Source: a virus
DNA length: 64,000 bases
IMG/VR virus record: IMGVR_UViG_3300042923_001106
Coordinates: 32,001-96,000 of that record
Strand: one strand, 5' to 3'
Positions 14,866 to 59,681 of this stretch are shown one piece after another. The first letter of the stretch is position 1; each line of letters opens with the position of its first letter. Made by a program: the position numbers and the translations under genes. Under the pieces are notes generated by a model. The model was not told the origin of the DNA and ran no database searches. It saw only the letters and a program-made list of their open reading frames with translations.

Positions 14866-15126
14866 ATGACTTATGAAGAAGCCAAAGCACACAAACTAAT
14901 ATTAGAGAAAAAGAATAATACTGATTCTAGCGCGCTGCAATTCTTCGAAAGAAACGCTATGGGATTAATACCGGATCATGTTAGAGAAACGCCAGAATGG
15001 AAAAGTGCTAAAAAGGCTTTTGATAGTTCTTTTGCCGAACTAAGAAACTTTAACGGATGGTTTGTTAAAATGTTTAAAAAAGAAATTTCTGCCGATAGAA
15101 ATTATAAACGATACGTGAGCAAATAA
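14866..15126 (+). CDS. Hypothetical protein
   Basis: 86 aa; stop codon lies inside the 18-bp motif. Confidence 0.75.
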   Translation: MTYEEAKAHKLILEKKNNTDSSALQFFERNAMGLIPDHVRETPEWKSAKKAFDSSFAELRNFNGWFVKMFKKEISADRNYKRYVSK

Positions 15127-15156
15127 AATTTTAATTTTATCATCCAAAATAAAGGA

Positions 15157-15411
15157 GTGTTTACCATTTCGCTATCATACAAAATCAAATTGTTGTCACA
15201 AGAAGAAAAAAGTAAATTTATTAGCATGTTAGATAAATGTTTAAAACTCCAATCTTTTTGGGTTAAATGTTTACTTGATACTAATAAAACAAATGAACAA
15301 TGTGACTTTGCATTAAATAAATTATATTCAATAGAGCAAGAGTTCAGAAACCGATTTAATTATTTGGGTTTGGATAGTTTCAGATTAAACGATAATAAAC
15401 TGTGCCTATAA
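15157..15411 (+). CDS. Hypothetical protein
   Basis: 84 aa; stop codon lies inside the motif. Confidence 0.65.
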   Translation: MFTISLSYKIKLLSQEEKSKFISMLDKCLKLQSFWVKCLLDTNKTNEQCDFALNKLYSIEQEFRNRFNYLGLDSFRLNDNKLCL

Positions 15412-15435
15412 AATGTTACTTTTATTCCTTAAAGG

Positions 15436-15462
15436 ATCGGCAGCCATGCCGGTTTTTGTTTG
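15436..15462 (+). terminator. Intrinsic terminator
   Basis: ATCGGCA-GCCA-TGCCGGT followed by TTTTGTTT. Confidence 0.65.
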
Positions 15463-15605
15463 TGTCTAAGCGTCTATATTCGCTTTATCATTGCTTATCC
15501 AGAATTTAAGTATATCCCTATGATTGAACCTAGAAACGTCTTACATTGGGTTTGTGGCGTTCTCAGCTCATATAAAATAAACATAAACAATAGTAAATAA
15601 AACAT

Positions 15606-15634
15606 TTGTTTATCTATTCTTAGTATGATAATAT
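15606..15634 (+). promoter_or_regulatory. SigA-type promoter
   Basis: TTGTTT-17-TATAAT with TG extension; upstream AAATAAAACAT. Confidence 0.7.
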
Positions 15635-15677
15635 TAATTTTAGGGATTCTATTCGCCCTAACATTAAATAAAATGGA

Positions 15678-16328
15678 GTGGTTTTTATTAAAAAGTGTTC
15701 TGATTGTAATAAAGAAAAACCTTTAAATGAGTATTATTTCAACTTTATTAAAAAGAAAAATGGGGAAGTTAAAATTTCGTATCATCCCAGATGTAGAGCG
15801 TGTTCGGTAATTCGTAATTCTGAATACCGAATAAAAAATGACAACAGAGAGAAAAGATTGGTGACACAAAAGCAATATAATAAACGTGAAGAAACTAAAG
15901 AATATCAAAATAAAATGAGGAGAGATGGATATAGAAAAGAATATTTAAGCGAGTATAGGAAAAGTAATCCTAATAAAATTAAAGAATATAATAAGAAGTA
16001 CTCAAACAAAAAGCATAAAATCACTATGAAAGAATGGGATGCCTGTCGTTTATATTTTGACTATAGGTGTGCATATTGCGGCAAAACTTGGGAGCAGAAT
16101 AAAAAAGAAACAAGAAAAGATTTACATCAAGAACATGCATATGATGACGGTGCGAATGATCTAAGTAATTGTATTCCATCATGTCAAAGTTGCAACAGTT
16201 CAAAACGTGAAAATGATTATATAGAGTGGTATTCGATTAATAACCCTTTGTTTAAGCAGGAAAGAATAGAGAAAATAGATAAATGGTTAATTGAGGAATA
16301 TAAGAGATATATTGAATTCATCCAATAA
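15678..16328 (+). CDS. HNH endonuclease with N-terminal Zn finger
   Basis: CSDC...CRAC at the N-terminus; CAYCG...EH...GANDLSNCIPSCQSCNSSK. Confidence 0.85.
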   Translation: MVFIKKCSDCNKEKPLNEYYFNFIKKKNGEVKISYHPRCRACSVIRNSEYRIKNDNREKRLVTQKQYNKREETKEYQNKMRRDGYRKEYLSEYRKSNPNKIKEYNKKYSNKKHKITMKEWDACRLYFDYRCAYCGKTWEQNKKETRKDLHQEHAYDDGANDLSNCIPSCQSCNSSKRENDYIEWYSINNPLFKQERIEKIDKWLIEEYKRYIEFIQ

Positions 16329-16385
16329 ATTACTGTTTTCATTCACCTATTTAAACTATAATCACAGTAAAGGAGTGAGTACATT

Positions 16386-16604
16386 ATGAATCAAATCACG
16401 AGTTTTTTAATCTATACGCAATACGGATTAGTTAATATCGTACATTCTCTAGAGGAATTGCAGCAGATTGAAAAAATAAATTGGATAAAGGTCGAGATAT
16501 GGAAATTTGGAACACGTCAAAATGTTATCGAAAAATGGAACGGCTACGATAAACTAATGGAATATGCAATCTTTTATTTCAAATTGATTCAGCCTAACAA
16601 ATGA
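16386..16604 (+). CDS. Hypothetical protein
   Basis: 72 aa; stop codon lies in the motif. Confidence 0.65.
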   Translation: MNQITSFLIYTQYGLVNIVHSLEELQQIEKINWIKVEIWKFGTRQNVIEKWNGYDKLMEYAIFYFKLIQPNK

Positions 16605-16638
16605 AAACTGGATTTTATCAATATGAATAAAATAAATG

Positions 16639-16990: not shown

Positions 16991-19792
16991 ATGGAGGCGT
17001 TCCAAATGCACTATATTTACAAACGGGAAGCAAAGGTAATGATTGCTCATGCACTCGAAAAAAACGGATGGAAAGTTTACGGCTATCACGAAGACCAATC
17101 CGACAGCATGACCGACTATTATCACCCGGCCTCGTGGGATGGAATCGCTACAAAGAACGGTCATACACTCGTTATTGATAATTCCAATACATACTATTCC
17201 GGTTATGAAGTAAAGAAATATAACTATTCTGCACGTAAAGCTGTTGTAAATAACAATAACAAGATTGAAAAACTTCGTGCACTCGCTAATGATGAAGGAG
17301 CGACAGAAGGAGAAAAGGCGGCAGCACGTGAAGGAATCGAGCGCCTAACAGGTAAAGAAGCAAATGACGAACCTACATGGACAGTCATCGGCACTTACCC
17401 AACGTTTGCCCACGGTAATCCGGGTAAATGTTCATGGCACATAGAAAAAGACGGTCAAATATTGGCTAAAGGAACCGGCGTGTTTGCTTGCAATGAGTAT
17501 GATTGGGAGGACAAGACAAAAACAGCAGCAGAACAGAAACAGGAAAAAGTTACAGATATTATTGCTCGATTTGAAAAGGTATTAGGGGATTCTGATGCAC
17601 TGCAAGCCGAAGTAATTAAAGTTGAAAAGAAAATTATTAAACATGTAGAAATTGAAAAGACAAGTGTAACAGAAAGTGAAATTACCGAATGTTTTACTTT
17701 TATTATGAAGATTGATTACACGGGAGGTAATTGGAAGGGCAATAAATGGCAGATGGTTAGAAGATATGACAGCGAGAAAAGCGGAGCGAACTTTATATTT
17801 CAGCGCTTAGGTAAGCGCGGCAAGCCTGTTAATGGTGATTGGTGGTTAAGTGTTGAAAAACTTAATAAGATTCTTTCCAAAGGACACATTGCAATTGTAG
17901 AAATGCAAGAGGTTACAGAATACGAAGAAAAGACCGTATTTAAGAAAACTGGACGCAAGCAGCCTCAAGCAAACTTTGACAATGACGCTTTACCGGGAGA
18001 TGTTGAGGAGGAAACAACAGAAGAAACTACACAGGAGTCCGCACAAGCAAAGAAACAAACTGTAAAGCATGAAACAGTATCCGACAACGATCAAGCGACT
18101 AAAAAGCAACTATGGGCGCTACACTGTGCAACAAAGTTAAACACGACTAACCTTTTTATTACAAAAACTAAAGCGTCCGAGTTAATCAGCAAATCGAAAG
18201 CCGGTACAGATATAACGGACGAAGTGAAAGCATTATTAGGTATTGTAGACGCTCCAGAAGTGAAAGAGGAGTCGATAAAAGTAAATGCACAAGAGAGTCA
18301 ACAGAACGACGAAGATCCTGCAGATTGGATCTTAGACTATGCCACAAGTATTATAATGGATGATAATACGGATTCGGTTAAGAAACCGGAAACGGAGGAA
18401 GAAAAAGCAGATTTTAGAAACAAAATAATTGAGTATGTGAAGTACAAAGGAGATTCTGTTACCCAATCTCTTATCAATCATTTTATCTCATTAGGTTCTG
18501 GCGTAACCATCTTGTTAATTGTAGAGGCTTTGCAATCATTGAACGGTTCCCATAACAGCATAGACGAATTAAAGCAGGATGATTATACATTCAATATCGA
18601 TTCGTCATATCTGTACCACGATATACATTTCAAAGCATGGAACATGGAAATAGAACAAATTGAGCCGTATTTGAATGTTCGGGAAATACCATTTTACATT
18701 GCTGGTGATAAGTTTATATGTAAAGGTTTGACTATTGAACAAGTACAATTTATCGAAGGTTTGAACGCATCCAATCAGGCGATATTGTTTTATGATGATA
18801 AATACAACGAAAAGCCCAATAACAGCACCAGAACAGAAGAGCTTGAGAATCAGAATGAAAACACAATTTTATCATCCGATAACATTATATATCATAACTT
18901 TACCAGCAACCAAACCAATAAAGAGGAGACTGAAAACGAATATATGATTGACGATGACTTTTTAAGCAAATTTGATAATGTCGAAGTAACAAATGAGTCA
19001 AAGATTGCCGCTGATGACTTGGAATTCTGTAAGGAACAAGAAGACATTTATAAAAAACTTATTTCAACGTATAACAGTTTTAGTAGTCAATTGCAGGACA
19101 TTTCAAAATTAACTAAATCCATTAGTGAAAATTATACTTATACTAATAATGGATATACGCATAGACACGATACAGCATACTCTAGCAGCTTTTCACAAAG
19201 CGATATTAATGAAAAAATTAATAAAATGAAAGATCGCTTTATTAGCACAATCTGCTATTACTTTGAAAGAAAATACAATATAACAATTCAAGAAGAGAAA
19301 ATACAGAAAAAATATAAAGAATCCGTAACACTAGAAAACATTTTAGATGAAATACATATACAGTTAGAAGGATTCAATTTCACTGAGAAAGCAGAAAAAG
19401 AAATCAAGGACAAATCAAAAGAAATTGTAAGAAATAGTGATAAAATTACAATTAAAAACAACAAATTAATAATTGATGCTTGGTTTTCTCGCCTTGATTC
19501 AATTTGGAAAGAGTATAGAACTAACGGAGAAAGACTTACCAATATTTTTAATGCTCTCCAGCACTTCGAAAATGGGCAAATAAAAGGCAATGAGGAACTA
19601 ACTAAGAAATATATTGGCTATGATAACGAACGCAGCCAGTCAAACTATGAACGTTATGAACCGACAACATTAAGTAAAGTTGCTTCGATCAAAATTTTGA
19701 AAAATGGAAAACTTGAAATTGAATTTAAATCAAATCAACAGGCTACACAATTTGCAAAGGTTTATTGCGGATACAATCAAAAATCAGCATAA
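16991..19792 (+). CDS. Large multi-domain (polyvalent-like) phage protein
   Basis: 933 aa with acidic low-complexity linkers; immediately upstream of the MTase-helicase fusion. Confidence 0.7.
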   Translation: MEAFQMHYIYKREAKVMIAHALEKNGWKVYGYHEDQSDSMTDYYHPASWDGIATKNGHTLVIDNSNTYYSGYEVKKYNYSARKAVVNNNNKIEKLRALANDEGATEGEKAAAREGIERLTGKEANDEPTWTVIGTYPTFAHGNPGKCSWHIEKDGQILAKGTGVFACNEYDWEDKTKTAAEQKQEKVTDIIARFEKVLGDSDALQAEVIKVEKKIIKHVEIEKTSVTESEITECFTFIMKIDYTGGNWKGNKWQMVRRYDSEKSGANFIFQRLGKRGKPVNGDWWLSVEKLNKILSKGHIAIVEMQEVTEYEEKTVFKKTGRKQPQANFDNDALPGDVEEETTEETTQESAQAKKQTVKHETVSDNDQATKKQLWALHCATKLNTTNLFITKTKASELISKSKAGTDITDEVKALLGIVDAPEVKEESIKVNAQESQQNDEDPADWILDYATSIIMDDNTDSVKKPETEEEKADFRNKIIEYVKYKGDSVTQSLINHFISLGSGVTILLIVEALQSLNGSHNSIDELKQDDYTFNIDSSYLYHDIHFKAWNMEIEQIEPYLNVREIPFYIAGDKFICKGLTIEQVQFIEGLNASNQAILFYDDKYNEKPNNSTRTEELENQNENTILSSDNIIYHNFTSNQTNKEETENEYMIDDDFLSKFDNVEVTNESKIAADDLEFCKEQEDIYKKLISTYNSFSSQLQDISKLTKSISENYTYTNNGYTHRHDTAYSSSFSQSDINEKINKMKDRFISTICYYFERKYNITIQEEKIQKKYKESVTLENILDEIHIQLEGFNFTEKAEKEIKDKSKEIVRNSDKITIKNNKLIIDAWFSRLDSIWKEYRTNGERLTNIFNALQHFENGQIKGNEELTKKYIGYDNERSQSNYERYEPTTLSKVASIKILKNGKLEIEFKSNQQATQFAKVYCGYNQKSA

Positions 19793-22873: not shown

Positions 22874-23109
22874 GGGAGAATCGAATATTCTCCCTAAAAT
22901 AAAACTTGATTTTTATAAAGTAAAAGTATATAAATAAAATTAACAAGTAAACCAATTGCAGAAATTTTAAGGGAGGAATACAAAAATGTTCAAAAGCGGA
23001 AAAAGGATTAACGGCAAGTTGTATGTGCGAACCCATAAGGGAAATCTAATTGAATTATCGCTGCTAATTATATAAGTAAAAACATAATATAAAAGGGGTT
23101 TTGTTTATA

Positions 23110-23499: not shown

Positions 23500-23720
23500 T
23501 AACTAAACATGATCCAATGAAATCAGAATTTTATTTGGAGTAAAAAATAAAAAATGGAGTGATAACAATGAAAACAAAAGAAGAATTATTAAAGTATTAT
23601 GAAAAGCAACTAGAAAAGGTAACTAACACCTACAAAGATGATCATAGAAAAGAAGAATACATCAAACAAGCAGAGGAAAATTTAGAGGCAGTAAAGAACG
23701 GGAGAGAGTGGTAATTAATT

Positions 23721-24438: not shown

Positions 24439-24549
24439 AAGAAGTTTTCGCAGCCCAATGGGACATGTTATAATTGTCATAATATACATAGGCTAACACT
24501 TAACAGTCAAGGGGAATGAAACCAGTCTTTCATAGGATAACAGAGAGGA

Positions 24550-24807: not shown

Positions 24808-24857
24808 TCACCCTAAATAGGTTATAAAACAAGTATTTTATCTCATGAACAGGGGGA

Positions 24858-25130
24858 TTGCCTGTGCGCTGCAAAGTGTCAAATGGGTATGCAGAAATCG
24901 GAGATATTATTTCTGTTAGTGAGTATGGTAATGCGCAATATAAAGTCACTGAGTTTGGGGACTATGAAGGCGCGCCGCAAATTAGATATCGAAGGATTTT
25001 TCCTGAGACTGGTGAATTCTATCCAGATACAATTGGATCATGGATGAGCTTAGAAGATGCTTCAACGGAGTTAAGATTGGTTAGCCAAAAGAAAAAGTTT
25101 AGTCTTCGTAATTGGATTAGTGGCAGATGA
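24858..25130 (+). CDS. Hypothetical protein
   Basis: 90 aa, bounded by motif copies at 24824 and 25127. Confidence 0.65.
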   Translation: MPVRCKVSNGYAEIGDIISVSEYGNAQYKVTEFGDYEGAPQIRYRRIFPETGEFYPDTIGSWMSLEDASTELRLVSQKKKFSLRNWISGR

Positions 25131-25232
25131 AAACGGCATTTTATTTAGGATTTTTCTCTAATGAATTCTACATACACATTGTGGACTAGATTAAGATGCC
25201 AAAGGATATAAAATAAAACCAATGATGTAACT

Positions 25233-25544: not shown

Positions 25545-25854
25545 AAGTTAATCACCTACAATGGAAGGTAAGATATCCTGTTATTTTATGAAGTGAGCAT
25601 AATGATTGATTGGACACATCGACAAAAAAGTAATTAAATAAAAAGTATAAATAAAAAGTGTATTTCATGTGGTGAACTAGGAGTTGAAATTGATGAATAA
25701 TTTGTTATGTAAATTGTCTGGACATTCACTTGATTTCTCAAAAGTTGTTGGACGACTATCAAAAACAAATTTAGTGAAATACAGATGTGTGCGATGCAAC
25801 AAAATAGTTGTGTGTAGATGAAATGTATCTTTCATTATGGAGGAGTGATGAAAA

Positions 25855-26429: not shown

Positions 26430-26783
26430 ATGATTAATCTGTATGTTGACGATCTTCGTGATTGTCCTGAAGGCTTCGTTGTTGCTCGTACATATGAAGA
26501 AGCAATTAACCTTGTGGAAAATAACGAAATTGAAATCCTTACACTTGATCATGACCTTGGAGAAGACGCCAATGGCAAGGAACTTCCCAATGGATATGAC
26601 TTCGTTAAATGGTTCTGTGAAAACGGTAAACGAGCAAACAAAATTTATCTTCATACCGACAACCCTGTGGGTCGCAATAATATGTATGAAACGCTTCTCG
26701 CTGCTCAAAGAAGAGGTTTTATTGATGAAGATATTGAAATTTATCATTATCCGATTACGGCAAACAAATATTCTGGGCAATGA
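26430..26783 (+). CDS. Cyclic-phosphate-processing receiver-like domain protein (second paralog)
   Basis: LYVDDLRDCP...LTLDHDLG...GYDF...LHTDNPVG; bounded by motifs at 26393 and 26780. Confidence 0.75.
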   Translation: MINLYVDDLRDCPEGFVVARTYEEAINLVENNEIEILTLDHDLGEDANGKELPNGYDFVKWFCENGKRANKIYLHTDNPVGRNNMYETLLAAQRRGFIDEDIEIYHYPITANKYSGQ

Positions 26784-26812
26784 AATATCTATTTCATTAG
26801 GAGGACTAACGA

Positions 26813-26974: not shown

Positions 26975-27217
26975 AATGTCCATTTTAATTGGAGGAGTAA
27001 ACGAAGATGAGATATCCTACTTTATACGATAAGGATCAGATTGAATCAATTGTGTATCGACTTGTGGGCTACTGGAACAACGATAACTATGTACAATTTG
27101 TTAAACAATCAAATGAACTTTATGAGAAATACGGAGAGTTTCAAGCAGATGAGTTGATGAAAAAGATTAAGCAACAAATAAAATAATTGTTTTATTAACT
27201 AAAAGGAGTGAAAATAA

Positions 27218-28007: not shown

Positions 28008-28112
28008 CGGTGGAGGCGAAAGCCTCTTTTTTGTTGTAATATTCTCAATGTGCGATTTTAAGAAATAAAAGAGCCGTTTTATTTACCGGCTCCTAGAAGT
28101 GTGTCCATATAT

Positions 28113-28844: not shown

Positions 28845-29150
28845 ATGATAACTAACAATCGTAACGAGATAGTGCAAAAATCCTTTCAATTGCAAGTTAG
28901 ACTTTCTAAAATGGCTAAAGAGGATAATCAGAATGAATTATTAAAAGCTTTACATAGCAATCATAACCAATTAAGACTTGATTATCGAATGAAAAGAATT
29001 TCATTTGAACAATTTCACGATGGATTTTTGTTAGTTAGCAATACTCTTGGTGAGATAGACAGGATTAGCACGGAGATACTAATGGATGCAGTTGAAAAGT
29101 TAGGACAGATGTCTTTATTGCATGGACGTCAAAATGTGGGGATAAAATGA
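28845..29150 (+). CDS. Hypothetical protein
   Basis: 101-aa ORF ending in motif 29142. Confidence 0.65.
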   Translation: MITNNRNEIVQKSFQLQVRLSKMAKEDNQNELLKALHSNHNQLRLDYRMKRISFEQFHDGFLLVSNTLGEIDRISTEILMDAVEKLGQMSLLHGRQNVGIK

Positions 29151-29187
29151 CTGTTTCATCATCTTCAATGCTTCAGGAGGATTACAT

Positions 29188-30053: not shown

Positions 30054-30545
30054 ATGAACTTTCTTGAACAGTTGGCGAATGAGTGGTACTCGTATACGGA
30101 TCATTTTGTTCGCAATAATATTAAGTTTGATAAGCGTCCAAATGGAGGCTACAATGGAGAAATTGATGTAATAGCATTTAATTATAAGGAAAATCAACTA
30201 ATTCACATTGAAGCTTCTATGGATGCTAATCAAAATGAAAAACGAGTTATTGGCTTCAATAAGAAATTCCGTTTAACATTAGGGGAATACAACGAACTGT
30301 TGAAAACCGAGGCTACGAATATAAAGAAAATTGCAATAGTAGGCATATCGAAAACAGCAATTGATTTTGGAAACGGAATTCAGCATATTACTGTACCTGA
30401 TTTTGTAAACAATATAACGAATAGAATTAAGAACATTGATCCAATGAAAGCAGCAATTCCAGAAGGCTTCCCGTTGATGAGAGCAATCCAATTTTCAAAT
30501 TATTATATAAATAAAACAAAGGATGAAATTATCGTTAGGCAATGA
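30054..30545 (+). CDS. PD-(D/E)xK nuclease-fold protein
   Basis: EQLANEW...GEIDVIAF...LIHIEAS. Confidence 0.6.
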   Translation: MNFLEQLANEWYSYTDHFVRNNIKFDKRPNGGYNGEIDVIAFNYKENQLIHIEASMDANQNEKRVIGFNKKFRLTLGEYNELLKTEATNIKKIAIVGISKTAIDFGNGIQHITVPDFVNNITNRIKNIDPMKAAIPEGFPLMRAIQFSNYYINKTKDEIIVRQ

Positions 30546-30594
30546 AATGGTTATTTTATGAATCGAGAAAGGACTATAGAAAGGGGGAAATAAG

Positions 30595-33803: not shown

Positions 33804-34225
33804 GCACACTTGAACAAGCAATAATCGTCGCTGCCGATGGGCATCAAGGTCAATATGATAAAGCCGGACTACCGTACATATTCCATCCATTACGAGTAAT
33901 GATGGCTTTAACCACCGAAGAAGAACAGATCGTTGGGGTATTGCACGATGTTCTAGAAGATACGGTTATTACAGAAGATAGGTTAAGGTACTTCGGATTT
34001 TCTGAATTGATTATCGAGGCTGTGAAAAGCGTGACAAGACGTGAAGGAGAAAGTTATTCAGTATTTATTCGTCGGTGTAAGGAAAATGAAATCGGTGTAA
34101 AAGTTAAGATCGTGGATCTGAAGGATAATATGAACATCTCTAGGATTCCCAATCCGTCTCAAGAAGACTTCAGACGGATTGAAAAATACAAAAAGGCACT
34201 AGCAATATTGCTTGACGAAGAATGA
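33800..34225 (+). CDS. HD-domain (RelA/SpoT hydrolase-like) protein
   Basis: HQGQYDKAGLPYIFHPLRV...GVLHDVLEDT...VKIVDLKDN. Confidence 0.8.
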   Translation: MSTLEQAIIVAADGHQGQYDKAGLPYIFHPLRVMMALTTEEEQIVGVLHDVLEDTVITEDRLRYFGFSELIIEAVKSVTRREGESYSVFIRRCKENEIGVKVKIVDLKDNMNISRIPNPSQEDFRRIEKYKKALAILLDEE

Positions 34226-34551
34226 AACGAATCTTTTATTGAGAGAGGATGAATAAAAAAAAATGAAACTGAAATTCGTGCAAACTCCACATAATTCCAT
34301 TCGGGTATGGATGCTATTCGATGAGGATCATAAAGATGTAATGATAAAATCGAGAGAATTTAACTTTTTCCAATTCATCTGAATATGGGGTGGATTTGAC
34401 AAAGTGGAAAGAGACATGTTTTCGTGGGAATTACCATTGTCGATAAAAGATTATATCAAGAAAAAATTCGCCCATTACCCAGATTGCCAAATCAATATAT
34501 TGTGATTAATATAAAAATGTGAGTTCAATTGAGAATGGGTGAGCTGGACGA

Positions 34552-34971: not shown

Positions 34972-35241
34972 TTGCGTCTATTATCAAAAATGCTAACAGA
35001 AGACGAACTAAATAAAATGAATATTTTAATGGGAGATGAAAAAATGACAAAGCAAAATTATACACTGAAAAACGGTAAGTCAATAACTGTAGGTACTCAA
35101 AACTTCATAAATGGAACTATTCCAGTAATTATCAATGGGAATATGAAAATGAATCATACTATGGTTCAGGATTCAAATGGAGACCTAGGATTTTGGTGTG
35201 ACGGTGAGTTTGTATATTTTAGAGATTTAAGCAGTCAATGA
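34972..35241 (+). CDS. Hypothetical protein
   Basis: ORF whose stop codon lies in the motif. Confidence 0.55.
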   Translation: MRLLSKMLTEDELNKMNILMGDEKMTKQNYTLKNGKSITVGTQNFINGTIPVIINGNMKMNHTMVQDSNGDLGFWCDGEFVYFRDLSSQ

Positions 35242-35278
35242 ATGGATTCTTTTATAATCCAAGTGGAGGAGATATAGA

Positions 35279-38533: not shown

Positions 38534-39004
38534 ATGATGGAACAAATTAGCAAATACCACTATAAAACTTACGTAGGTTTCAAAGAGGATAATGGATATA
38601 GAATGAGTTGGAATTCAAGTCATCCAGATCTTGAGCCAACAGAAACATTCAGTTTAGGTTATACAGATGTTTATTGTGTCTATTGTTGTGGTCAAGCGTA
38701 TCCAATTCAAGCAGGACTAAAAGGAGTTGTATACGGCTACACCAAAAACTATGATGTGACCGGTTATACATGTATCTGTGAAGCAGCCGAGAATGAAAAG
38801 TTACAAAGAAAAGAATTGAAGGAGTTACAAGAAAGACATAAAAAAGAAGAATTAGAACTGATGAGAAAGTTTCAACCACTTCTAAAGCAGGATAAACGGA
38901 AACGTCTTGAATTGAAGCATAAACGAGAATTGTATGAGCTTGAAAATGATGAGAAATACGAAAGACAGATGTCGTTGAGAAGTAATGAAGTAGTTAGGAA
39001 ATAA
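38534..39004 (+). CDS. Hypothetical Cys-containing protein
   Basis: CVYC...CIC; stop codon lies in the motif. Confidence 0.65.
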   Translation: MMEQISKYHYKTYVGFKEDNGYRMSWNSSHPDLEPTETFSLGYTDVYCVYCCGQAYPIQAGLKGVVYGYTKNYDVTGYTCICEAAENEKLQRKELKELQERHKKEELELMRKFQPLLKQDKRKRLELKHKRELYELENDEKYERQMSLRSNEVVRK

Positions 39005-39024
39005 AATCGGTATTTTATCGAGAG

Positions 39025-39228
39025 GTGATAATGAAAATGAGTGATGAACAGGTGGCGTCACTATATAAATTTTATGTTAAAGAGACGATACGGTTGCTCA
39101 ACATTAAATGTAGAACCAAAAATAGAAGAATTAAATTTAAACTATTTGCAAGGATTATGAAATTAAAAGATAAATATGATTGGACTTATGATGAGATTTA
39201 TAGACGTAGACTATTACAATTCAAATGA
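39025..39228 (+). CDS. Hypothetical protein
   Basis: 67 aa, bounded by two exact motifs. Confidence 0.6.
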   Translation: MIMKMSDEQVASLYKFYVKETIRLLNIKCRTKNRRIKFKLFARIMKLKDKYDWTYDEIYRRRLLQFK

Positions 39229-41053
39229 AATTTGTGTTTCATCTTACGATTTAAAATAAAATAAACCAAAGGGAGAACTAGTAAATGGAATTTAAACAAT
39301 TCAAAGAAATGCTGCAAACAAATTTTCAACAAATGTCGAAAGAAGTAACACACTTATTTGAAGTGAACTTGGATAAGGATGAACTCTGGAACTTGTACTT
39401 AGACAGTTTTCCAGATGGAACTAATTTGATTTTCAGAGAACGAAGAGAATATGACTGTTCTTGCTGTAGACAATTTGTAAAAAATATTGGCAATGCGGTT
39501 GTGATCAAGAACAATAAAGTAACGACCATCTGGGATTTCGAGACGGATGATGTTAAATTTCAACCTGTTCTTGATGCGCTATCATCGTTTGTCAAATCTA
39601 AAGTTGTTTCTGACGTATACATTAGCAAATTTAAGAAAATGGGAACAGATAAAAATTTCGAAGAGGTTAACGGTGGTGCAAAGGAATGGCAACATCTTTA
39701 TCTTGAACTACCTGATAAGTATGTAGATAAAAGTTCGCGTTCTGAGGGTGACATTAAGGGAACTTACCGTGACACGAGAAACGTCTTCAAAAGATCCTTA
39801 GATGAAATTACTGAAGAAAGTCTTCTGACCGTGTTGGAACTCATTTCACAAAACTCGCTCTATAAGGGTGAAGAGTGGAAAGCAGCGTTAACAGAGTTCC
39901 ACAAGCATAAAAAAGAATACGATAAACTCCAGACACAACAAGAGAAGTCAAATTATGCTTGGGAGCAATCCGTAAAAGTTGGTGGCGCTATTGGCAGAAT
40001 CCGAAACCATAGCATGGGCACATTGTTGATTAACCTGAGCGAAGGAATGGATCTTGATACAGCCGTCAGGAAGTATGAAGTAATTGTTGCTCCGTCCAAT
40101 TACAAAAGACCGAAAGCAATCTTTACTAAGAAAATGTTGGATGATGCAAAAGAAACATTGCAACAACTTGGATATATGAATTCTCTTAATCGGCGTTTTG
40201 CCACTCTCGACGATATTACAGTGAATAATATCCTTTTCTCCAACAAAGATTCTGCGAAGCGAATTAGCGGCTCCGACGTGTTCGATGAAATGTTGGGCGA
40301 AGTTGCTATTAATCCGAAGAAATTTTCTAAAGTTGAAGAGATCCCGATTGAAGCATTTATCAAAGAAGTGCTGCCGACATCTAAGGAAGTCGAGGTTTTC
40401 CTAGAAAACAAACACTCTAACAACATGGTTTCCTTGATTGCTCCAGAGAATAGGGATGATAAAACTATGTTTAAATGGGGAAACGGTTTTAGTTGGGCAT
40501 ACTCTGGAAACATTACCGACAGTGCAATGAAAGAGCGAGTGAAGTCGGCAGGTGGCAATGTAGAAGGTGTATTGCGGTTCTCGATTCAATGGAATGACGG
40601 AAATTTCAACGGTAATGATTTCGACGCTCACTGTATCGAGCCAAGTGGCAATCAAATTTATTACGGTAGCAAGAAAAACTGGGCCACTACTGGTGAATTG
40701 GATGTAGATATCATTCGTCCCGAAAGAAGCAAGCCAGCAGTTGAAAATATTACATGGACAAATAGAGATAAGATGGCAAAGGGAACTTATAAATTCTTTG
40801 TTCACTGCTACTCTAACAATGGCGGTCGGGATGGATTTAAGGCAGAGATCGAGTTCGGTGGACAAATTTATTCGTTTGAATACAACAAAGAACTTCGTCA
40901 AGGTGAGAAGGTGCATGTTGCAGAAGTTAATTTCGATCAAGATGGGTTTACAGTTAATGAAAAACTGCCTTCCAATGTATCATCTCGCGACATTTGGAAT
41001 GTAAAATCGAATCAATTTGTTCCGGTTTCGGTCGTCATGTATTCGCCTAACTA

Positions 41054-44379: not shown

Positions 44380-44502
44380 GGTTATCAAATAAAATCCGCA
44401 TTTTATAAAATAAAAATATAGAGTATTAATTAAATTTGATTAAGAATACCTCTTATACATAACATATCAGTCACCTTAGAGAATGACAAAAAAATCAAAG
44501 AG

Positions 44503-44930: not shown

Positions 44931-44947
44931 TGATTATTCGCTCCTTT

Positions 44948-45903: not shown

Positions 45904-46206
45904 ATGACAGAGTTAATTAGTTATCCAGAACACGAAAAATTGAAAAAGGTAAGAGATAAATCACAAGCGATTGGAGAATTCCTTGTGTGGCTACAAGAAA
46001 GATATACGCTCTGTAGTTATTTACCTGTCAGTACCAGATTGACCGAGGAGGGGCATATTGAGATTGTAGAAGATGAACGCGCCAGACATCCTTTCCATGT
46101 GCCCGTAACAAAAAATATCGAAGACTACTTATCCGATTATTTTGGAATCGATCAAGAGAAATTGGAAAAAGAAAAACGTCAAGCGTTAGCGGCACTAAGG
46201 CAATAA
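45904..46206 (+). CDS. Hypothetical protein
   Basis: 100 aa, motif-bounded. Confidence 0.7.
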   Translation: MTELISYPEHEKLKKVRDKSQAIGEFLVWLQERYTLCSYLPVSTRLTEEGHIEIVEDERARHPFHVPVTKNIEDYLSDYFGIDQEKLEKEKRQALAALRQ

Positions 46207-46242
46207 AACACGGAATTTATTGGGAAAGGAAGAGAATACAAA

Positions 46243-47168: not shown

Positions 47169-47414
47169 GAATAAAAGATTGGTTTCATGGGGAGTGGATG
47201 ATTTGGAGGAATTATTGGCTGTAATCGAGCGATACAAAGAAACATTTAAGCGAAAAGAAAGATTGCTTAAACCATATCGTGATAAAAAAGAACGACAGAA
47301 GATTTACTTATAAATGAATCAATCTCAATGTTAATTTTGGAGGCCGAAATACGTCAATTGAAAGAAATCATCGAGGATCTTGAACATGTTGTTAGCAGAT
47401 AAAAGACTCGTTTC

Positions 47415-47648
47415 ATGGGGAGGGTGAATAGCTTGAGGAGTAAGGTGCCAACTAATATTAAAGAGGCAATCAGAAAAGCAGCGAAATATAATGCTAAGGC
47501 AAAACAGTATGAGGATATTGTTGAACGTTGGTTTGCAGCAAATGGAGTTGAAGAGAATGATAGCTTCAGGGATACATTTATTGATTGTGTGCAACAAAGT
47601 CCCGATCCTGAAAGGGCAATTGAGGTTTTTGAAAGATACTTAAACTAG
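47415..47648 (+). CDS. Hypothetical protein
   Basis: 77-aa ORF. Confidence 0.55.
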   Translation: MGRVNSLRSKVPTNIKEAIRKAAKYNAKAKQYEDIVERWFAANGVEENDSFRDTFIDCVQQSPDPERAIEVFERYLN

Positions 47649-47685: not shown

Positions 47686-47910
47686 ATGTTGCTGTTAATT
47701 TATCAGAATCAATTAGAATCCTTCCCTGTGTACAAAATACAGTGCCACAAAACACTTCTACGTACATGTCTTAAGAATGGATGGGTAGAAGAAAAGGAAA
47801 ACGATACTGTTATTGTAACTGACGCAGGTCTTGAGGCGGCAATGATTGAAATAGCTCCGCTTTATGAGCGCAATAAGGCAGCACAAATCGGACAAACATT
47901 TTCAGGATAA
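47686..47910 (+). CDS. Hypothetical protein
   Basis: 74 aa; stop codon lies in the motif. Confidence 0.55.
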   Translation: MLLLIYQNQLESFPVYKIQCHKTLLRTCLKNGWVEEKENDTVIVTDAGLEAAMIEIAPLYERNKAAQIGQTFSG

Positions 47911-47953
47911 AATACTAGTTTTATTTTGAAATAAACACAAAGGAGATGACGGC

Positions 47954-51886: not shown

Positions 51887-51902
51887 CTAGGAGATACAAT
51901 CA

Positions 51903-52373
51903 ATGAAATACACCTATGATTACTTTAGCAGAAATCGTGAGATTACACTAAGAAAATTATTAAATATTGAAGGTTCATATTCATCCATTTCAATCCGCGA
52001 ATTTTATGGAGAAGGTAAAAACCCAAATGAAAATCGCGCTATAAACTCTCTAGATCGAGGATTGTATATAATACAAAAGGGCAATTCCAGTGCTTCTGTT
52101 GATGATCTATTGAATTGTAACTTTAGTGATATTTTAAAAATAAGGAATGCTGGTAAGGGCTCTCATATAATTATTTTGAATGGAATTCTCGATTATTTTA
52201 AACTTGGGAAAATTATCGATGAACCAGAATTAATACGGTCGTACAAATGTGAAATAGATAAATTGATCCAGAGTTGTGATAATGACTCGTTAAAAGAAAT
52301 TATTTATTTACTTTTTGAAGAGCTGTCAATTATTGAAGCAGAAAAAGCATTAAGAAAAATAAAAGACAAGTAA
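51903..52373 (+). CDS. Protein with RNAP alpha-CTD-like segment
   Basis: RAINSLDRG...SVDDLLNCNFSDILKIRNAGKGSHIII. Confidence 0.5.
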   Translation: MKYTYDYFSRNREITLRKLLNIEGSYSSISIREFYGEGKNPNENRAINSLDRGLYIIQKGNSSASVDDLLNCNFSDILKIRNAGKGSHIIILNGILDYFKLGKIIDEPELIRSYKCEIDKLIQSCDNDSLKEIIYLLFEELSIIEAEKALRKIKDK

Positions 52374-52415
52374 TGAAAATACTATTTTATTTCTTTCTAT
52401 AGAAAGGAATTTTAA

Positions 52416-53018: not shown

Positions 53019-53057
53019 ATGAAAAGACTCTTTCATGGGGAAGTAGGAGGTGCATAA

Positions 53058-53585: not shown

Positions 53586-54407
53586 TTGAGCAAAGCTAAA
53601 AAGAAAATCGATGTAAACTCAGAAGAATTTAAAGTGCAGCAACACAGGGATAATCTTATACGTATTGAGGAACGATTGATTCACATTCCAGAGCCAACTG
53701 TTACTTTTGAGATTGGAGAAAGTGTAAGGGTGGGTAGTCTTGAAGATGAGATTGTTTTTTCAATTCTTCATGGTGGCAAAATTCTTGAAATCGATTATAC
53801 CTCTGTTAAGTCAAATTACGGAAATCCAATTCGCGAGGAGCATCAAAAGGGGTATTGGACATGGACAGAGACAAGAAAGAAAAATGACAATGTTAATTCT
53901 CTAATTGAAAACGACGATATCCGTTTGAACTACTCTCAAACCCATCTACGTGGATTGCTAACTAAAGTCTATCATTTTGGCGTAGATTTTAATCCTGATT
54001 ATCAGCGTGATTACGTTTGGGATGAGAGCGACAAAGTTAAGTTAATTGATGCAATATACAAAAATGTAGACATTGGGAAGTTCGCCTTTGTTCGGGTATC
54101 CGATAGAAAGTGGGAAGATAACGGGCATATCTACAGTTATGAAATTCTAGACGGTAAGCAGCGACTCAGAGCAATTCTCGATTATTATGAAAATCGTTTC
54201 CCGTACAAAGGATTTTATTTCAATGACTTATCACGCAGGGATCAAAATCATATGATGGAATACAGTGTTAATGTGGCCGAAGTATCCGAGCTAACTTACG
54301 AGCAAACGTTACGATACTTCCTGATGCTCAACACTAGTGGACGGATTATGAGTGAAGAACATCTAGACAAGGTTCGTCAATTGCTTGATCAAGAGACGAT
54401 GAAATAA
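53586..54407 (+). CDS. DUF262 (ParB/GmrS-like) domain protein
   Basis: FNPDYQRDYVW...LIDAI...EILDGKQRLRAI...FLMLNTSG. Confidence 0.85.
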   Translation: MSKAKKKIDVNSEEFKVQQHRDNLIRIEERLIHIPEPTVTFEIGESVRVGSLEDEIVFSILHGGKILEIDYTSVKSNYGNPIREEHQKGYWTWTETRKKNDNVNSLIENDDIRLNYSQTHLRGLLTKVYHFGVDFNPDYQRDYVWDESDKVKLIDAIYKNVDIGKFAFVRVSDRKWEDNGHIYSYEILDGKQRLRAILDYYENRFPYKGFYFNDLSRRDQNHMMEYSVNVAEVSELTYEQTLRYFLMLNTSGRIMSEEHLDKVRQLLDQETMK

Positions 54408-54434
54408 CGGTTTCATTGAGAGGTAGGGTTAATA

Positions 54435-54638: not shown

Positions 54639-54651
54639 GGAGTTACAATAT

Positions 54652-54855: not shown

Positions 54856-54885
54856 CAAATAAACGATGATTTTATGGGATGAGAG

Positions 54886-55200: not shown

Positions 55201-55222
55201 CGACTTCAAAGGAAGTGAGAAA

Positions 55223-55768: not shown

Positions 55769-55832
55769 AGAGATAAAGATTTTTGAGCAATTCCGATGAG
55801 AACATGCTTTTATCTGATAAAAGGTTAGGAAG

Positions 55833-56276: not shown

Positions 56277-56301
56277 ACCTTTTACCAAGGATGAGAGCGG
56301 T

Positions 56302-56568: not shown

Positions 56569-56657
56569 CTGATTTGTAAATGATTGTTGATCATTTTATG
56601 AGTGTTTATGAAGTGTGACAGTGAAAGGTAATTTTATTTGAGGCGAGAATAACTAAC

Positions 56658-57110
56658 ATGTCTGTCAATGTGATTCAAGGTGATTTACTCAATGCTCCAG
56701 AAAACATAATTGGACATCAGGTTAATTGTCAGGCCGTAATGGGATCAGGTGTAGCTAGAGCTTTGAGGGACAAGTATTCCGATTTATACTCAGCATACAC
56801 AGAGTTTTGTACGGGAAACTCACCAAAAGAATTATTAGGACAGTTGCAAATTGTACCAGTCGCAAAAGACAAATATGTGGCTAATCTATTTGGTCAGCTG
56901 AATTTTGGACGATCTAACATTACATACACTAATTACGACGCTCTGAAAGAGGCATTACTTGCATTAAAAGAATGCGCCAAAGAAAATGGATATACTGTTG
57001 CGCTTCCATATAATATCGGCTGCGGATTGGCCAACGGTAGATGGGCAATTGTTGAAAAGATACTCGAAGATGTTTTTTCGGACTATGATGTGGTATTGTA
57101 CAAAATTTAA
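56658..57110 (+). CDS. Macro domain (ADP-ribose processing) protein
   Basis: IQGDLL...IGHQVNCQAVMGSGVARAL...VANLFGQ...ALPYNIGCGLANGRW. Confidence 0.85.
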   Translation: MSVNVIQGDLLNAPENIIGHQVNCQAVMGSGVARALRDKYSDLYSAYTEFCTGNSPKELLGQLQIVPVAKDKYVANLFGQLNFGRSNITYTNYDALKEALLALKECAKENGYTVALPYNIGCGLANGRWAIVEKILEDVFSDYDVVLYKI

Positions 57111-57127
57111 TAATACTACACAATTTC

Positions 57128-57526
57128 ATGGAGGACAGAAGGATGAATCCAAAAGAAATTGGTAAGAGAATAGTGTATGTTCTACAGCTTGAAAATGATT
57201 ATTTTTATGTTGGACAAACGCCATATTTAGTTAAAAGATTGGATGAACATAAAAGGAACAAAGGATCTGTCTGGACTAAGATTCATAAGTACGAATACCT
57301 GATTGAAACTTATGATGCGGGGTCATGTACATCGAAAGATGCAGAGGCCCTTGAGAATGAAGTAGTCATAAAGTATATGAAAGACAAAGGATGGAGGAGA
57401 GTTAGGGGAGGTAATTTAAGTGCTATTGATGAGAAGGAAATATTGAGAGTACTATTGAAATTTCCGAAAAAGTATAACCTAGATCAAGAATTTATAAATA
57501 TTCTAACTGCCAGTCAATCTGAATAA
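57128..57526 (+). CDS. GIY-YIG nuclease
   Basis: IVYVLQLENDYFYVGQT...RLDEH...LENEV...VRGG. Confidence 0.8.
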   Translation: MEDRRMNPKEIGKRIVYVLQLENDYFYVGQTPYLVKRLDEHKRNKGSVWTKIHKYEYLIETYDAGSCTSKDAEALENEVVIKYMKDKGWRRVRGGNLSAIDEKEILRVLLKFPKKYNLDQEFINILTASQSE

Positions 57527-57563
57527 AACAACAATTTCAATTGATTGTAAAGGAGTATGAAAT

Positions 57564-57872
57564 TTGAATAAAATAGAAAGAAATTATTTATTTGAACTAT
57601 ACAATAACTCTAATTTTGTCCCTAACATCAAAAACAATATGGATATTGGAGCAGCTACTAGTCAGAGATATGACTTAATGGAACAGTCCAAATTAATCAA
57701 ATCACTTTCATACGCTATTCTTATGTTAGGTTCAGAAGATGATAAGGAATATTGGAAAGAAGAATGCGATGAAGCATTGCATGAATTAATGGAGTTTCGA
57801 AAACATAGAGAGGAGGAAAATTGGAATCCTAGAACAACATATGGATACACAGTAAATTTAAGTGGTTGGTAA
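57564..57872 (+). CDS. Hypothetical protein
   Basis: 102-aa ORF. Confidence 0.65.
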   Translation: MNKIERNYLFELYNNSNFVPNIKNNMDIGAATSQRYDLMEQSKLIKSLSYAILMLGSEDDKEYWKEECDEALHELMEFRKHREEENWNPRTTYGYTVNLSGW

Positions 57873-58110
57873 TATGATAAAACAAATAATTCATGGGGAG
57901 TTGACGTACATGCAAGAGTTTAAATTTAAAGGGAAAGTTGTTACCGATCCTATTGACGAAAATAATGTAGCATGGTTAATAGAAGATTCTTTTGGAGTAC
58001 GACACAATGCAGCAGACCTTCTAACTGGAATTGATCTCCTGAGTAATAGTTTCCGCACTGAAGATGGAGATGAAGTAGAGATTATAGTTCATAAGAAGGT
58101 CATAAAATAA
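57862..58110 (+). CDS. Hypothetical protein
   Basis: ORF; true start probably downstream of motif 57877. Confidence 0.55.
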   Translation: MVGNMIKQIIHGELTYMQEFKFKGKVVTDPIDENNVAWLIEDSFGVRHNAADLLTGIDLLSNSFRTEDGDEVEIIVHKKVIK

Positions 58111-58361
58111 TACTTTTATAGGGTGGTGATAAAGTGGCTACGAGCAAGGAACTTGAAGAAGAGCGAAAAACAATTGCAATGCGAGTTTTTCAATTGCATG
58201 GTGTTGCTGTTGATGTTGGCGGATATAATACTAGACAGTTAAAAGATATTGAAAGAATGCTCGATCAGTCTTACACTTATCATAAATTAAATGATACAAA
58301 AAATGAATAAAACAATTCTTTCATTTGGGCAGTCGGAACTTAATAACGATGGGAGACTAAT

Positions 58362-58793
58362 ATGGGAATGTATTATAGTTTGAGATGTAAGCTGAAATTA
58401 AAAAAAGATTTCGTACCATTGATCCAATCATTATTAGATAGTGACAATGATGATGAATGGAGTAATTTAAAAACTGAGATTGATTCGATAAGAGAATACT
58501 CTAAAGCTGATCGAGCATCTTTTATACCGTTTGGAGGGTTGGCATATTCGCCAGAGTTGTGGCAGTCAGAAGAGGATGAGTGGTGCAATGAGATAGTGAA
58601 TGACACTTGGACTTTCCAATGCAGTATAAAGACACTAAGTACAATCGAGTCGTTTTTTCAAAATGTAGTCCCAATTATTACGGAAGTATCATTGCATATT
58701 GAATTATTTTATGAAGAAGATAATAATTCAACGTTTTACAAACTAATCGAAGGTGCGGTCATTGAAACAGGCGAAATGATCACATATGATTGA
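58362..58793 (+). CDS. Hypothetical phage protein
   Basis: 143-aa ORF. Confidence 0.7.
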   Translation: MGMYYSLRCKLKLKKDFVPLIQSLLDSDNDDEWSNLKTEIDSIREYSKADRASFIPFGGLAYSPELWQSEEDEWCNEIVNDTWTFQCSIKTLSTIESFFQNVVPIITEVSLHIELFYEEDNNSTFYKLIEGAVIETGEMITYD

Positions 58794-58857
58794 CTTTCAG
58801 ATGAAACAGCGATCTTAATTAACGAATACTCTCTGTAAATAATTCTCTAGCATTATA

Positions 58858-58876
58858 CGAACATACGTTCTATAAT
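58858..58876 (+). promoter_or_regulatory. LexA/DinR box abutting a -10 element
   Basis: CGAAC-ATAC-GTTCT (58858-58871), then TATAAT at 58871-58876. Confidence 0.8.
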
Positions 58877-58984
58877 AGCGATATAGCCACTACACTATTT
58901 AAGTGGAACCCAGAGATGTCAGTTTCGTACCTTTTTGACTCAATTAGGAGCAATAAAATAGCGTTTTTATAGGAGGGAAATAAA

Positions 58985-59425
58985 ATGACAATTCGTGCTA
59001 TCGAGAACCCAACTTGGAGTAATGGAATCAAGGAAACATTGACACCATACTCTACATCGTTCGAGTTTGAAGGAGTGCCTGACGATAATCCTTTAGACAG
59101 ATATGAGTGGTTCGAGCTTGTTAACGAAGACGGAGCAACTCAGGGAGTCGGTTGGATTGAAATAGACAAATTTATGGGGAAAGTGGAATGTGAAATATCG
59201 TTATGCGTAAATAGTAACCATAGGACAGTTCGAGGAATTGGAGTGAGATTGTTAGAACATTTAGAAGATGTGGCTACTAATAAATCTGCAGATATCTTTT
59301 TGGCAATTGTTAAGATGAGTAACCCTGAACATGATCAGGTTGTAAGTTGGTTTGAAAGAAGAGGATATACAATCGATCCAGAAGAATCCTCCAATACTAA
59401 CACTTGTCTGAAGAAACATATGTAA
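58985..59425 (+). CDS. GNAT-family acetyltransferase
   Basis: EISLCVNSNHRTVRGIGVRLLEHLE...N...VSWFERRGY; bounded by exact motifs at 58953 and 59425. Confidence 0.8.
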   Translation: MTIRAIENPTWSNGIKETLTPYSTSFEFEGVPDDNPLDRYEWFELVNEDGATQGVGWIEIDKFMGKVECEISLCVNSNHRTVRGIGVRLLEHLEDVATNKSADIFLAIVKMSNPEHDQVVSWFERRGYTIDPEESSNTNTCLKKHM

Positions 59426-59681
59426 TAAAATTGGCATTTCATTTCATTTGATCATTGGAGAGTTCCAAGTTTTGAAGAGTATGATGAATATATAAATCGG
59501 CACCTGTAAAACGGGACTATTTTCCTATTATAAATAAACAAAAAGTAATTTGAAAAATAAAACTAATACATATATCCTCAATAATATGAAAATAAAAATT
59601 GAGGTGTTTATGTGTTTGTTTTATTTTTTAATATTTGTGATATAATATATACCAAAGGGTAAAAAATGAGGAGTTGAGGTA

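Follow-up and report, generated by a model that had tools for sequence, protein, structure and literature searches.

The stretch of DNA analysed here, called the window throughout, is 64,000 nucleotides long and comprises bases 32001-96000 of the IMG/VR virus record IMGVR_UViG_3300042923_001106 (G000; 183,208 bp, rated complete). Its small genes are separated again and again by an interrupted palindrome, ATRAAA-N6-TTTYAT. Judged by comparison with related phages, the copies of this motif are most likely addressed crossover points for gene swapping. In the specific form that seems to us somewhat the better bet, they would be dif-like joints of a phage tyrosine recombinase, and the 6-bp centre of each joint would be the address of a slot for in-register gene exchange. 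The centres are specific to their slots and outlast the genes beside them, and the palindrome is strict; together, these features point to a recombination joint whose centre is matched to that of its partner. Phage genomes are mosaic, and how exchange falls cleanly at gene boundaries has been a question since the linker proposal of the 1970s. No description of the motif came up in literature searches, whose coverage did not extend to the 1999 SPbeta genome paper.

The motif is present in 41 exact copies in the window, compared with 0.30 expected from dinucleotide shuffles (maximum 3), and in 76 exact copies in the whole record, compared with 0.8 in Markov controls. Allowing one mismatch adds 48 sites across the record, about 15 of which are expected by chance. 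Within the window the array extends from 14834 to 59442, between small co-directional genes of the + strand, and contains 64 joints (41 exact, 23 with one mismatch). Spacer length, almost always 6 according to a sequence-only reading of this DNA, is strict, with 76 copies at N6 and 1-4 at each other length from 3 to 11. Weaker symmetric conservation carries the palindrome out to about 24 bp: an A precedes the motif in 55 of 76 copies, a T follows it in 44 of 76, and C/G occupies positions -3/+3. The degeneracy is also symmetric, R in the left arm and Y in the right, and both arms have the same consensus. The symmetry of degeneracy and flanks fits the earlier expectation that a dimer would bind the palindrome. 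Each copy takes up the space that separates a stop codon from the ribosome-binding site that follows. In the window, 17 of the 41 copies themselves supply the TAA or TGA stop (positions 2-4) to a frame of at least 40 codons, and a Shine-Dalgarno (SD)-like sequence begins a median of 7 nt past the motif. Nearly all genes between about 43 kb and 169 kb of the record lie on the + strand and most are small; 72 of the 76 copies are in this arm, spread over more than 120 kb.

Within the genome, no centre is used twice. The spacers are distinct among the 41 exact copies of the window, among the 76 of the record, and among all 124 sites when one-mismatch copies are included. Among 124 random spacers of matched composition, 4.3 duplicates would be expected, and the probability of seeing none is 0.011. 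None of the 124 is palindromic or the reverse complement of another. The spacers TGTTAC, ACTGGA, GAGCCG, CGGAGA, and GGTCAA, given as examples in the sequence-only reading, are located at 15408, 16601, 28065, 46762, and 50269. Its statement that the spacers all differ holds for sites of one genome; between related phages, spacers at the same position are identical.

This identity is seen in relatives found by way of the YopQ-like protein that is encoded just beyond the array. Two are Logan contigs (L112 and L115) and two are Paenibacillus prophages (L113 and L114); a further contig, L111, is a 100% identical piece of the window phage and of no use as a relative. The nearest relative is L112, a 40-kb contig whose YopQ is 97% identical to that of the window, and the YopQ proteins of L113, L114, and L115 are 56-60% identical to it. 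The window phage and L112 have 9 of 13 spacers in common, in the same order. The other relatives share 10 of 21 (L113), 14 of 25 (L114), and 6 of 16 (L115) with it, and every one of the four shared sets is perfectly collinear with the window phage. Chance sharing amounts to 0.8-1.6 spacers, with a maximum of 5-8 in 5000 simulations. At 36 of the 39 shared joints, neither flank shows protein homology in the nearest 450 nt, and the 12 nt adjoining the motif are at random identity. Successive shared addresses bracket unrelated cargo of differing length. In L112, only about 6 of the 20 genes of the array have any homolog in the window phage, both flanks are unrelated at 7 of the 9 shared-spacer sites, and at the five shared sites that were displayed the 45 nt on each side are at random identity. 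A single cargo gene is common to the two, and it has a shared joint on each side (52373 and 53019). As a negative control, the IMG/VR proviruses G001-G005, which carry the motif but align to the window phage over 2-5% of nucleotides and were unusable for orthologous junctions, share spacers with the window phage at chance level, as do Tsamsa, E3, the Staphylococcus SPbeta-like phage, and SPbeta.

The comparison of orthologous junctions proposed by the sequence-only reading is thus the decisive one, and it divides that reading: a site on duplex DNA is upheld and the premise of a heterologous core is not. The core had been taken as non-homologous, but spacers are identical between relatives even where both flanking genes are unrelated. 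The same reading had required of any recombinase a tolerance of heterology. Since the spacer at a given position is identical between relatives, the natural partner of each site would be the site with the same address in another genome, and since such partners share their centre, the enzyme would need no such tolerance. Across these phages the 6-bp centres behave as slot-specific sequences and not as the free filler of an operator. The exact joints of the window, and one-mismatch joints with a shared address, are given below by window coordinates, with no strand assigned, together with the relatives that carry the same address.

15123..15140, exact joint; supplies the upstream stop
15408..15425, exact joint; supplies the upstream stop
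16601..16618, exact joint
18855..18872, exact match within an open reading frame of 933 residues; may be chance or an embedded copy
22899..22916, exact joint
23517..23534, exact joint
24516..24533, exact joint
24824..24841, exact joint
25127..25144, exact joint
25651..25668, exact joint; an ATAAAA...TTTCAT copy additional to the ten noted earlier
25818..25835, exact joint
26780..26797, exact joint
27178..27195, exact joint
28065..28082, exact joint
29142..29159, exact joint
30542..30559, exact joint
34222..34239, exact joint
35238..35255, one-mismatch joint; address also in L114
35546..35563, one-mismatch joint; address also in L114
35726..35743, one-mismatch joint; address also in L113 and L114
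36157..36174, one-mismatch joint; address also in L113 and L114
36478..36495, exact joint; address also in L114
38507..38524, exact joint
39001..39018, exact joint
39225..39242, exact joint; directly before a widely travelled two-gene module
44389..44406, exact joint; address also in L115
45860..45877, exact joint
46203..46220, one-mismatch joint; address also in L113
46417..46434, exact joint; address also in L113, L114, and L115
46762..46779, exact joint; address also in L113 and L114
47171..47188, exact joint
47399..47416, exact joint
47907..47924, exact joint; address also in L113, L114, and L115
48670..48687, exact joint; address also in L113
48935..48952, exact joint; address also in L114
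50269..50286, exact joint; address also in L113 and L114
50587..50604, exact joint; address also in L115
50920..50937, exact joint; address also in L115
51438..51455, exact joint; address also in L112, both flanks unrelated
52373..52390, exact joint; left edge of the sole cargo gene shared with L112
53019..53036, exact joint; right edge of that gene
54399..54416, exact joint; address also in L112 and L115, flanks unrelated
55796..55813, one-mismatch joint; address also in L112
57523..57540, one-mismatch joint; address also in L112, L113, and L114
57877..57894, one-mismatch joint; address also in L112 and L114
58102..58119, exact joint; address also in L112, L113, and L114, flanks unrelated
58307..58324, exact joint; address also in L112 and L114, flanks unrelated
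58953..58970, exact joint; the corresponding L112 site has 2 of 6 spacer bases different
59425..59442, exact joint; the final one before the YopQ/MrpR module

A second line of evidence comes from phages in which the edges of homology can be mapped. SPbeta contains 34 copies of the core motif, WTAAAA-N6-TTTTAW, at spacer 6, compared with 3 expected, and these copies occupy the same position between stop codon and ribosome-binding site, on both gene strands. The core motif is also enriched in phi3T, Goe11, Goe14, BUCT082, and Geobacillus virus E3, in six IMG/VR proviruses of 142-218 kb (31-70 copies; controls 2-10), in Bacillus phage Tsamsa (29; control about 5), and in the Staphylococcus SPbeta-like phage (20; control about 5). 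SPbeta, phi3T, and Goe11 have 24-27 spacers in common among themselves, all collinear. Breakpoints were mapped among five B. subtilis Spbetavirus genomes whose alignments cover 43-62% of their length at about 95% identity, with the exception that Goe11 and Goe14 are nearly identical (87% at 99%). Homology breaks at 106 of 149 junctions with the motif (71%), compared with 236 of 754 motif-free junctions (31%), an odds ratio of 5.4. When only co-directional gaps of 8-80 bp are considered, the figures are 36 of 63 and 66 of 277 (p = 6e-7). Homology stops 8-12 bp beyond the motif centre, which is the far edge of the shared 18-mer, whichever flank is homologous, and at 107 of 157 such breakpoints the partner genome carries a motif with the same spacer. 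Single addresses, among them GATGCA, AGACTG, and GTAAAA, are joined in the five phages to 2-3 different upstream and 2-4 different downstream genes. Arm mismatches at joints fall in the arm on the non-homologous flank in 10 of 32 cases and in the arm on the homologous flank in 5 of 32, a trend only.

A mechanism that would account for these patterns is as follows. The arms ATRAAA and TTTYAT, with the weaker flanks (about 10-11 bp per arm in all), would serve as docking sites for a protein dimer, most likely a phage-encoded Xer-type tyrosine recombinase, and the 6-bp centre would be the overlap region in which strands are exchanged. With a private centre at each joint, no two joints of the same genome would be productive partners. 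When a related phage or prophage is co-resident and has the same centres in the same order, crossover would take place only between equal addresses. One crossover would then swap whole genome arms in register, and two would swap the gene or genes between two joints. Because the joint sits between a stop codon, which often lies within its left arm, and a ribosome-binding site, genes would remain intact after each exchange. Dimer binding, the identity of the protein as a tyrosine recombinase, and the need for matched centres are all inferred from sequence.

Two genes encode candidates for such an enzyme. Their positions are:

window 8242..9378, + strand, candidate YopP-like tyrosine recombinase of 378 residues (PF00589/PF02899; 30% identity to SPbeta YopP)
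G000 13680-14663, - strand, outside the window, YomM-like recombinase, the second candidate

The YopP-like protein of the window phage contains the R, HxxK, H, and Y signature residues, with HxxK in place of HxxR, and the YomM-like protein keeps R, K, HxxR, H, and Y. A comparison of the YopP-like protein with the PDB sequence set gave no match at E below 1e-5. Both of these orphan tyrosine recombinases are present in every complete motif-bearing genome tested. An attempt to pick the enzyme by co-occurrence failed, as both are found in all motif-bearing genomes and also in the motif-free Lactococcus phage LW81. As in SPbeta, the YomM-like gene adjoins a gene for a 143-residue protein (phrog_19892; G000 14676-15107, - strand). 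This protein, possibly a partner of the recombinase, is found in 7 of 8 motif-bearing groups and is missing from both LW81 and SEP9.

Several points weigh against a dedicated recombinase that joins equal addresses. The evidence is comparative throughout. LW81 has homologs of both candidate enzymes, but neither this motif nor any other 5-mer palindrome is enriched in it; the core motif is likewise not enriched in Staphylococcus phage SEP9. A Lys takes the place of the second catalytic Arg in SPbeta YomM and in the YopP-like proteins of the window phage and SPbeta. Only 6-7 bp per arm are strongly conserved, below the usual 11-13 bp. Orthologous genes in the more distant relatives adjoin different centres, and the protein encoded at 6871-7113 of L112 is 79% identical to that encoded at 47954-48184 of the window, where other addresses flank it. 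Slots can also appear or vanish, as at SPbeta 87598 relative to phi3T. Since cargo is found in other slots and slots come and go, some exchange also takes place between unlike addresses. In the breakpoint analysis, the five Spbetavirus genomes share ancestry and the counts represent non-independent events; the junctions come from our own gene calls, which are crude, and motif junctions lie mostly in the plastic early arm. Finally, a joint of 18-20 identical bp could serve general recombination, or recombination by phage annealing, without any dedicated enzyme.

This last possibility is a serious rival, although we consider it unlikely. The arms would bind a dimeric protein of some other role, in regulation or DNA architecture, and exchange would be a by-product of, for example, a phage annealing protein or host RecA acting on the short identity, with no site-specific recombinase. 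The SPbeta annotation includes a Sak4-like annealing protein and a RecJ-like exonuclease, identity at the joints is limited to the 18-mer, and LW81, with both recombinases and no motif, also fits. Among T4-type phages, the PeSL repeats already show regulatory repeats driving the shuffling of modules (PMC2839356). However, the centres of a by-product should drift, yet they are kept at 6 of 6 bases at 56-60% YopQ identity while their surroundings have been replaced. That the spacing is a strict 6 bp and that the arms persist in phages of Bacillus, Geobacillus, Paenibacillus, and Staphylococcus implies an arm-reading protein, for which no other role is evident: between 44000 and 60000 of the window there are 63 promoter-like sites (60.9 expected) and 7 terminator-like sites (5.9 expected), none of them tied to joints.

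Another way to join equal centres without a recombinase would be cutting and rejoining. A dimeric endonuclease would recognize the interrupted palindrome and cut within the centre, and a ligase would rejoin the address-specific overhangs in order. Nucleases of this type typically recognize interrupted palindromes in which 5-6 central bases are unspecified, a DNA ligase is among the proteins of SPbeta-like phages, and the unique centres would impose an order of rejoining. We nevertheless regard this explanation as improbable. No candidate nuclease is found among the proteins conserved across motif-bearing phages, about 100 cuts per genome would be risky, and nothing positively distinguishes it; we know of no natural system of this kind.

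Were the joints instead the property of single genes, the array would resemble an integron, with each site belonging to one cassette and moving with it as attC does. Its genes are small, co-directional, and promoterless-looking, each is followed by an imperfect palindrome, and the YopP-like recombinase gene lies 5.5 kb upstream of the first site (8242-9378 compared with 14834). Known attC sites are 57-141 bp long, act as folded single strands, and travel with their cassettes. The phage joints, in contrast, are 18 bp long, have no extended single-strand fold, and are not tied to the genes on either side. One address can have unrelated genes on both sides, and orthologs carry different addresses: among G000-G003, only 1 of 22 spacers beside orthologous genes is identical. 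Because orthologs carry other spacers and the L112 cargo homolog described above sits between other addresses, addresses and genes are uncoupled in both directions, and addresses do not travel with genes. The joints also extend over more than 120 kb and, in SPbeta, occur on both gene strands. The likeness to integrons is thus confined to small co-directional genes separated by imperfect palindromes and to a tyrosine recombinase, which in the phage is itself a proposal. Because the sites do not travel with genes and have no attC-like fold, the array is, as far as these comparisons reach, not an integron, and we hold that explanation to be very improbable.

We also give little chance to the idea that the motif is solely an operator or roadblock, through which a dimeric repressor or silencer would control the early arm with no role in recombination. 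Short arms around a free 6-bp centre do match the classical operators of helix-turn-helix dimers, the sites lie just upstream of ribosome-binding sites, and nearly all copies are in the + strand arm. A plain repressor or roadblock site, which the sequence-only reading had favored should the motif not be recombinogenic, would leave unexplained the slot-specific centres with unrelated flanks, the breakpoints at the edge of the motif, and the lack of duplicate centres. Moreover, SPbeta chromatin affinity purification sequencing (ChAP-seq) is without peaks at the 34 motif copies, and the master repressor MrpR/SroF, known to bind as a monomer at about ten promoters, reads a different sequence of 15-24 bp. 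In SPbeta, MrpR recognizes the element called SPBRE at these promoters (PMC10516654), and SroF binds a 24-bp box as a monomer (2025 preprint, 10.1101/2025.11.27.690993). Derived from the ten SPbeta ChAP-seq promoters, SPBRE reads roughly ACAAA-W-AATATGTAT. An MrpR/SPBRE operator was rejected as the identity of the motif, as the ten promoter regions carry this different sequence. SPBRE and the joint motif are alike in that each is a repeated intergenic element of the phage family, the former bound by a protein of tyrosine-recombinase fold (PMC10516654; 10.1101/2025.11.27.690993). They differ in sequence, in number and place (about ten copies at promoters compared with 34 SPbeta copies at stop-to-ribosome-binding-site junctions), and in that SPBRE is read by a monomer across 24 bp. 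A joint can also lie beside a repressor box: at SPbeta 76170 and 99497, the joint motif lies directly after terminator hairpins and just upstream of the SPBRE promoters of aimR and yorE.

An RNA-level signal, whether a hairpin, a processing site, or a translational coupling element in a polycistronic mRNA, is barely credible. It would fit a motif that always lies between stop codon and SD, on the sense strand of co-directional genes, and whose arms are self-complementary. However, the two arms vary independently, as the sequence-only reading had proposed and as its suggested covariation analysis bears out: at the R and Y positions (3 and 16), the classes A..T, A..C, G..T, and G..C number 12, 11, 10, and 8 in the window (Fisher p = 1.0) and 22, 25, 17, and 12 in the whole genome (p = 0.35, odds ratio below 1). 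An A-C mismatch would arise on folding in 25 of the 76 copies. The ten ATAAAA...TTTCAT copies reported earlier, at 29142, 45860, 46762, 47171, 47399, 50269, 50587, 50920, 58307, and 59425, are all present, and 25651 is an eleventh. Complementarity of spacer and flanks is not above chance, and the fold is weak, with a mean minimum free energy of -2.35 kcal/mol per 26 nt compared with -1.04 for shuffles. Neither the symmetric R/Y degeneracy nor the conserved centres have an RNA rationale. Together, the lack of covariation and the weak fold support the earlier view that the site is read on duplex DNA and not as an RNA hairpin.

The addressed joints proposed here can be compared with several known systems. 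The closest in outline is Xer/dif. A dif site consists of two arms around a 6-bp central region in which strands are cut and exchanged, and homology of the central region governs which exchanges are completed, as seen in the passage on phage VGJ (PMC5357621). The single-recombinase systems XerH/difH and XerS/difSL both resemble the motif in having inverted arms and a 6-bp centre (PMC5357621, PMC5241119), and the N6 motif has the inverted arms and fixed-length centre of a Xer/Cre-type core, in which the central region is 6-8 bp. The inner arms of the motif, ATGAAA/ATAAAA, 6 bp, and then TTTT/TTTC, also resemble those of difH and difSL, with inner bases that are A-rich in the left arm and T-rich in the right one; the left arm of difH, AGTTATGAAAA, ends in ATGAAAA (PMC5357621). 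In contrast to the phage sites, of which there are about 100 per genome, each with its own centre, there is one dif per chromosome, for the resolution of dimers. Conservation in dif extends over 10-11 bp per arm, compared with 6-7 bp in the phage joints, and no FtsK-type control is evident for the latter. The arms of the motif do not match what we take to be the dif arms of B. subtilis.

Recombinase-mediated cassette exchange with heterospecific lox or FRT sites follows the rule suggested for the joints: sites share arms and differ in spacer, only equal spacers recombine, and exchange is in register, without deletion or inversion. It is a two-site laboratory design, whereas the phage layout is natural, genome-wide, and conserved within lineages, with a spacer rule that we infer. 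If the joints are indeed substrates of a phage recombinase, they would be the natural counterpart of this engineered exchange. The dif modules (pdif) of Acinetobacter plasmids are similar to the array in that many dif-like sites in accessory regions bound discrete modules across replicons (PMC6449649). However, the XerC arm of a pdif site is distinct from its XerD arm, and host enzymes are presumed to act there, whereas both arms of the phage joint have the same consensus and degeneracy. Furthermore, pdif modules move together with their flanking sites, whereas the phage joints stay in place as an ordered scaffold while the cargo changes.

The modular theory of lambdoid phage evolution includes linker or boundary sequences to which the joints are comparable. 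The PeSL cassettes of T4-type phages are also similar, being short intergenic elements in plastic regions of small genes, at the ends of insertions, deletions, and replacements (PMC2839356). They are promoter-plus-terminator units that recombine by homology, unlike the joints, which have a strict palindrome and private centres. Because promoter-like and terminator-like signals are at chance in the array, the joints are not cassettes of the PeSL type.

More tentatively, we suggest that SPbeta-like phages of Bacillus, Paenibacillus, Geobacillus, and Staphylococcus possess a natural, genome-wide scaffold for cassette exchange, with about 30-110 dif-like joints per genome, private 6-bp addresses conserved within lineages, and a dedicated recombinase (YomM-like or YopP-like) that would pair equal addresses only. 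Were this true, co-resident phages could trade any accessory gene in register, those for anti-defence included, even where the flanks share no homology, which would account for how rapidly the accessory and anti-defence genes filling the arrays turn over. The scaffold would then be the physical form of the linker of modular theory, and it would supply orthogonal recombination sites as tools. Ordered joints whose centres outlast the neighbouring genes occur in SPbeta and phi3T, both tractable model phages.

The array ends at the following pair of genes:

59682..60989, + strand, YopQ-like gene (DndB family), the anchor by which relatives were found
60993..61991, + strand, MrpR/YopR (SroF)-like repressor gene, recombinase fold (PF22822/PF22823); given for context and not as the binder of the motif

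The order of these two genes is that of Bacillus phage SPbeta, and homologs of the YopQ-like protein are named almost exclusively from Paenibacillus genomes. By these two likenesses the source is a large SPbeta-like temperate phage of Paenibacillus. A megablast search of 44000-64000 of the window against phage records found no close relative, and scans of viral contigs with the MrpR-like protein and of genome contigs with the YopQ-like protein gave no match. Within this phage, paralogs are too few to reveal internal duplication of cassettes.

The MrpR-like gene is followed by a cassette containing an AgrB-family gene, at 62153-63923 in the window and 10490-12257 in L112, and also present in L113-L115. 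In L113 and L114, the YopQ-MrpR-Agr block occupies another place in the series of addresses than in the window phage and L112. L115 has two MrpR-like genes (1761-2762 and 11323-12339) and, between them, a gene of the IS605 OrfB/TnpB type (3104-4333). At the two ends of the G000 record, 852-5519 and 181639-183186 encode related proteins that are 84% identical over 406 residues; duplicated or flanking sequence may be part of the record, or it may not begin and end where the phage does.

Mobile elements are also present in the window. A gene for an insertion-sequence-type DDE transposase (PF13586, PF05598) lies at 41081-42652 on the - strand and represents an insertion in the phage (G000 73054-74772); the sequences that flank it are contiguous in L021, L022, and L033. 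The two-gene module that follows the joint at 39225 consists of a gene for a 589-residue protein without a Pfam match (39285-41054) and a small gene (43078-43467). It is found in 21 viral contigs, mostly without the joint motif, and appears to move on its own; given its presence in many unrelated contigs that lack the motif, it was dropped as evidence on spacers. A Mutator-family transposase gene (PF00872, E = 3.5e-120) is located at 1034-2254 on the - strand, near the window's left end and within a patch that has 45% G+C. Finally, the cargo of the array includes genes for a DarA_C-domain protein (12506-13888), a 1006-residue fusion of N6-methylase and SNF2 helicase (19853-22873), a PemK/MazF-like toxin (30595-31155), and a protein with a GmrSD N-terminal domain (53586-54407), all of which are likely defence or anti-defence genes.

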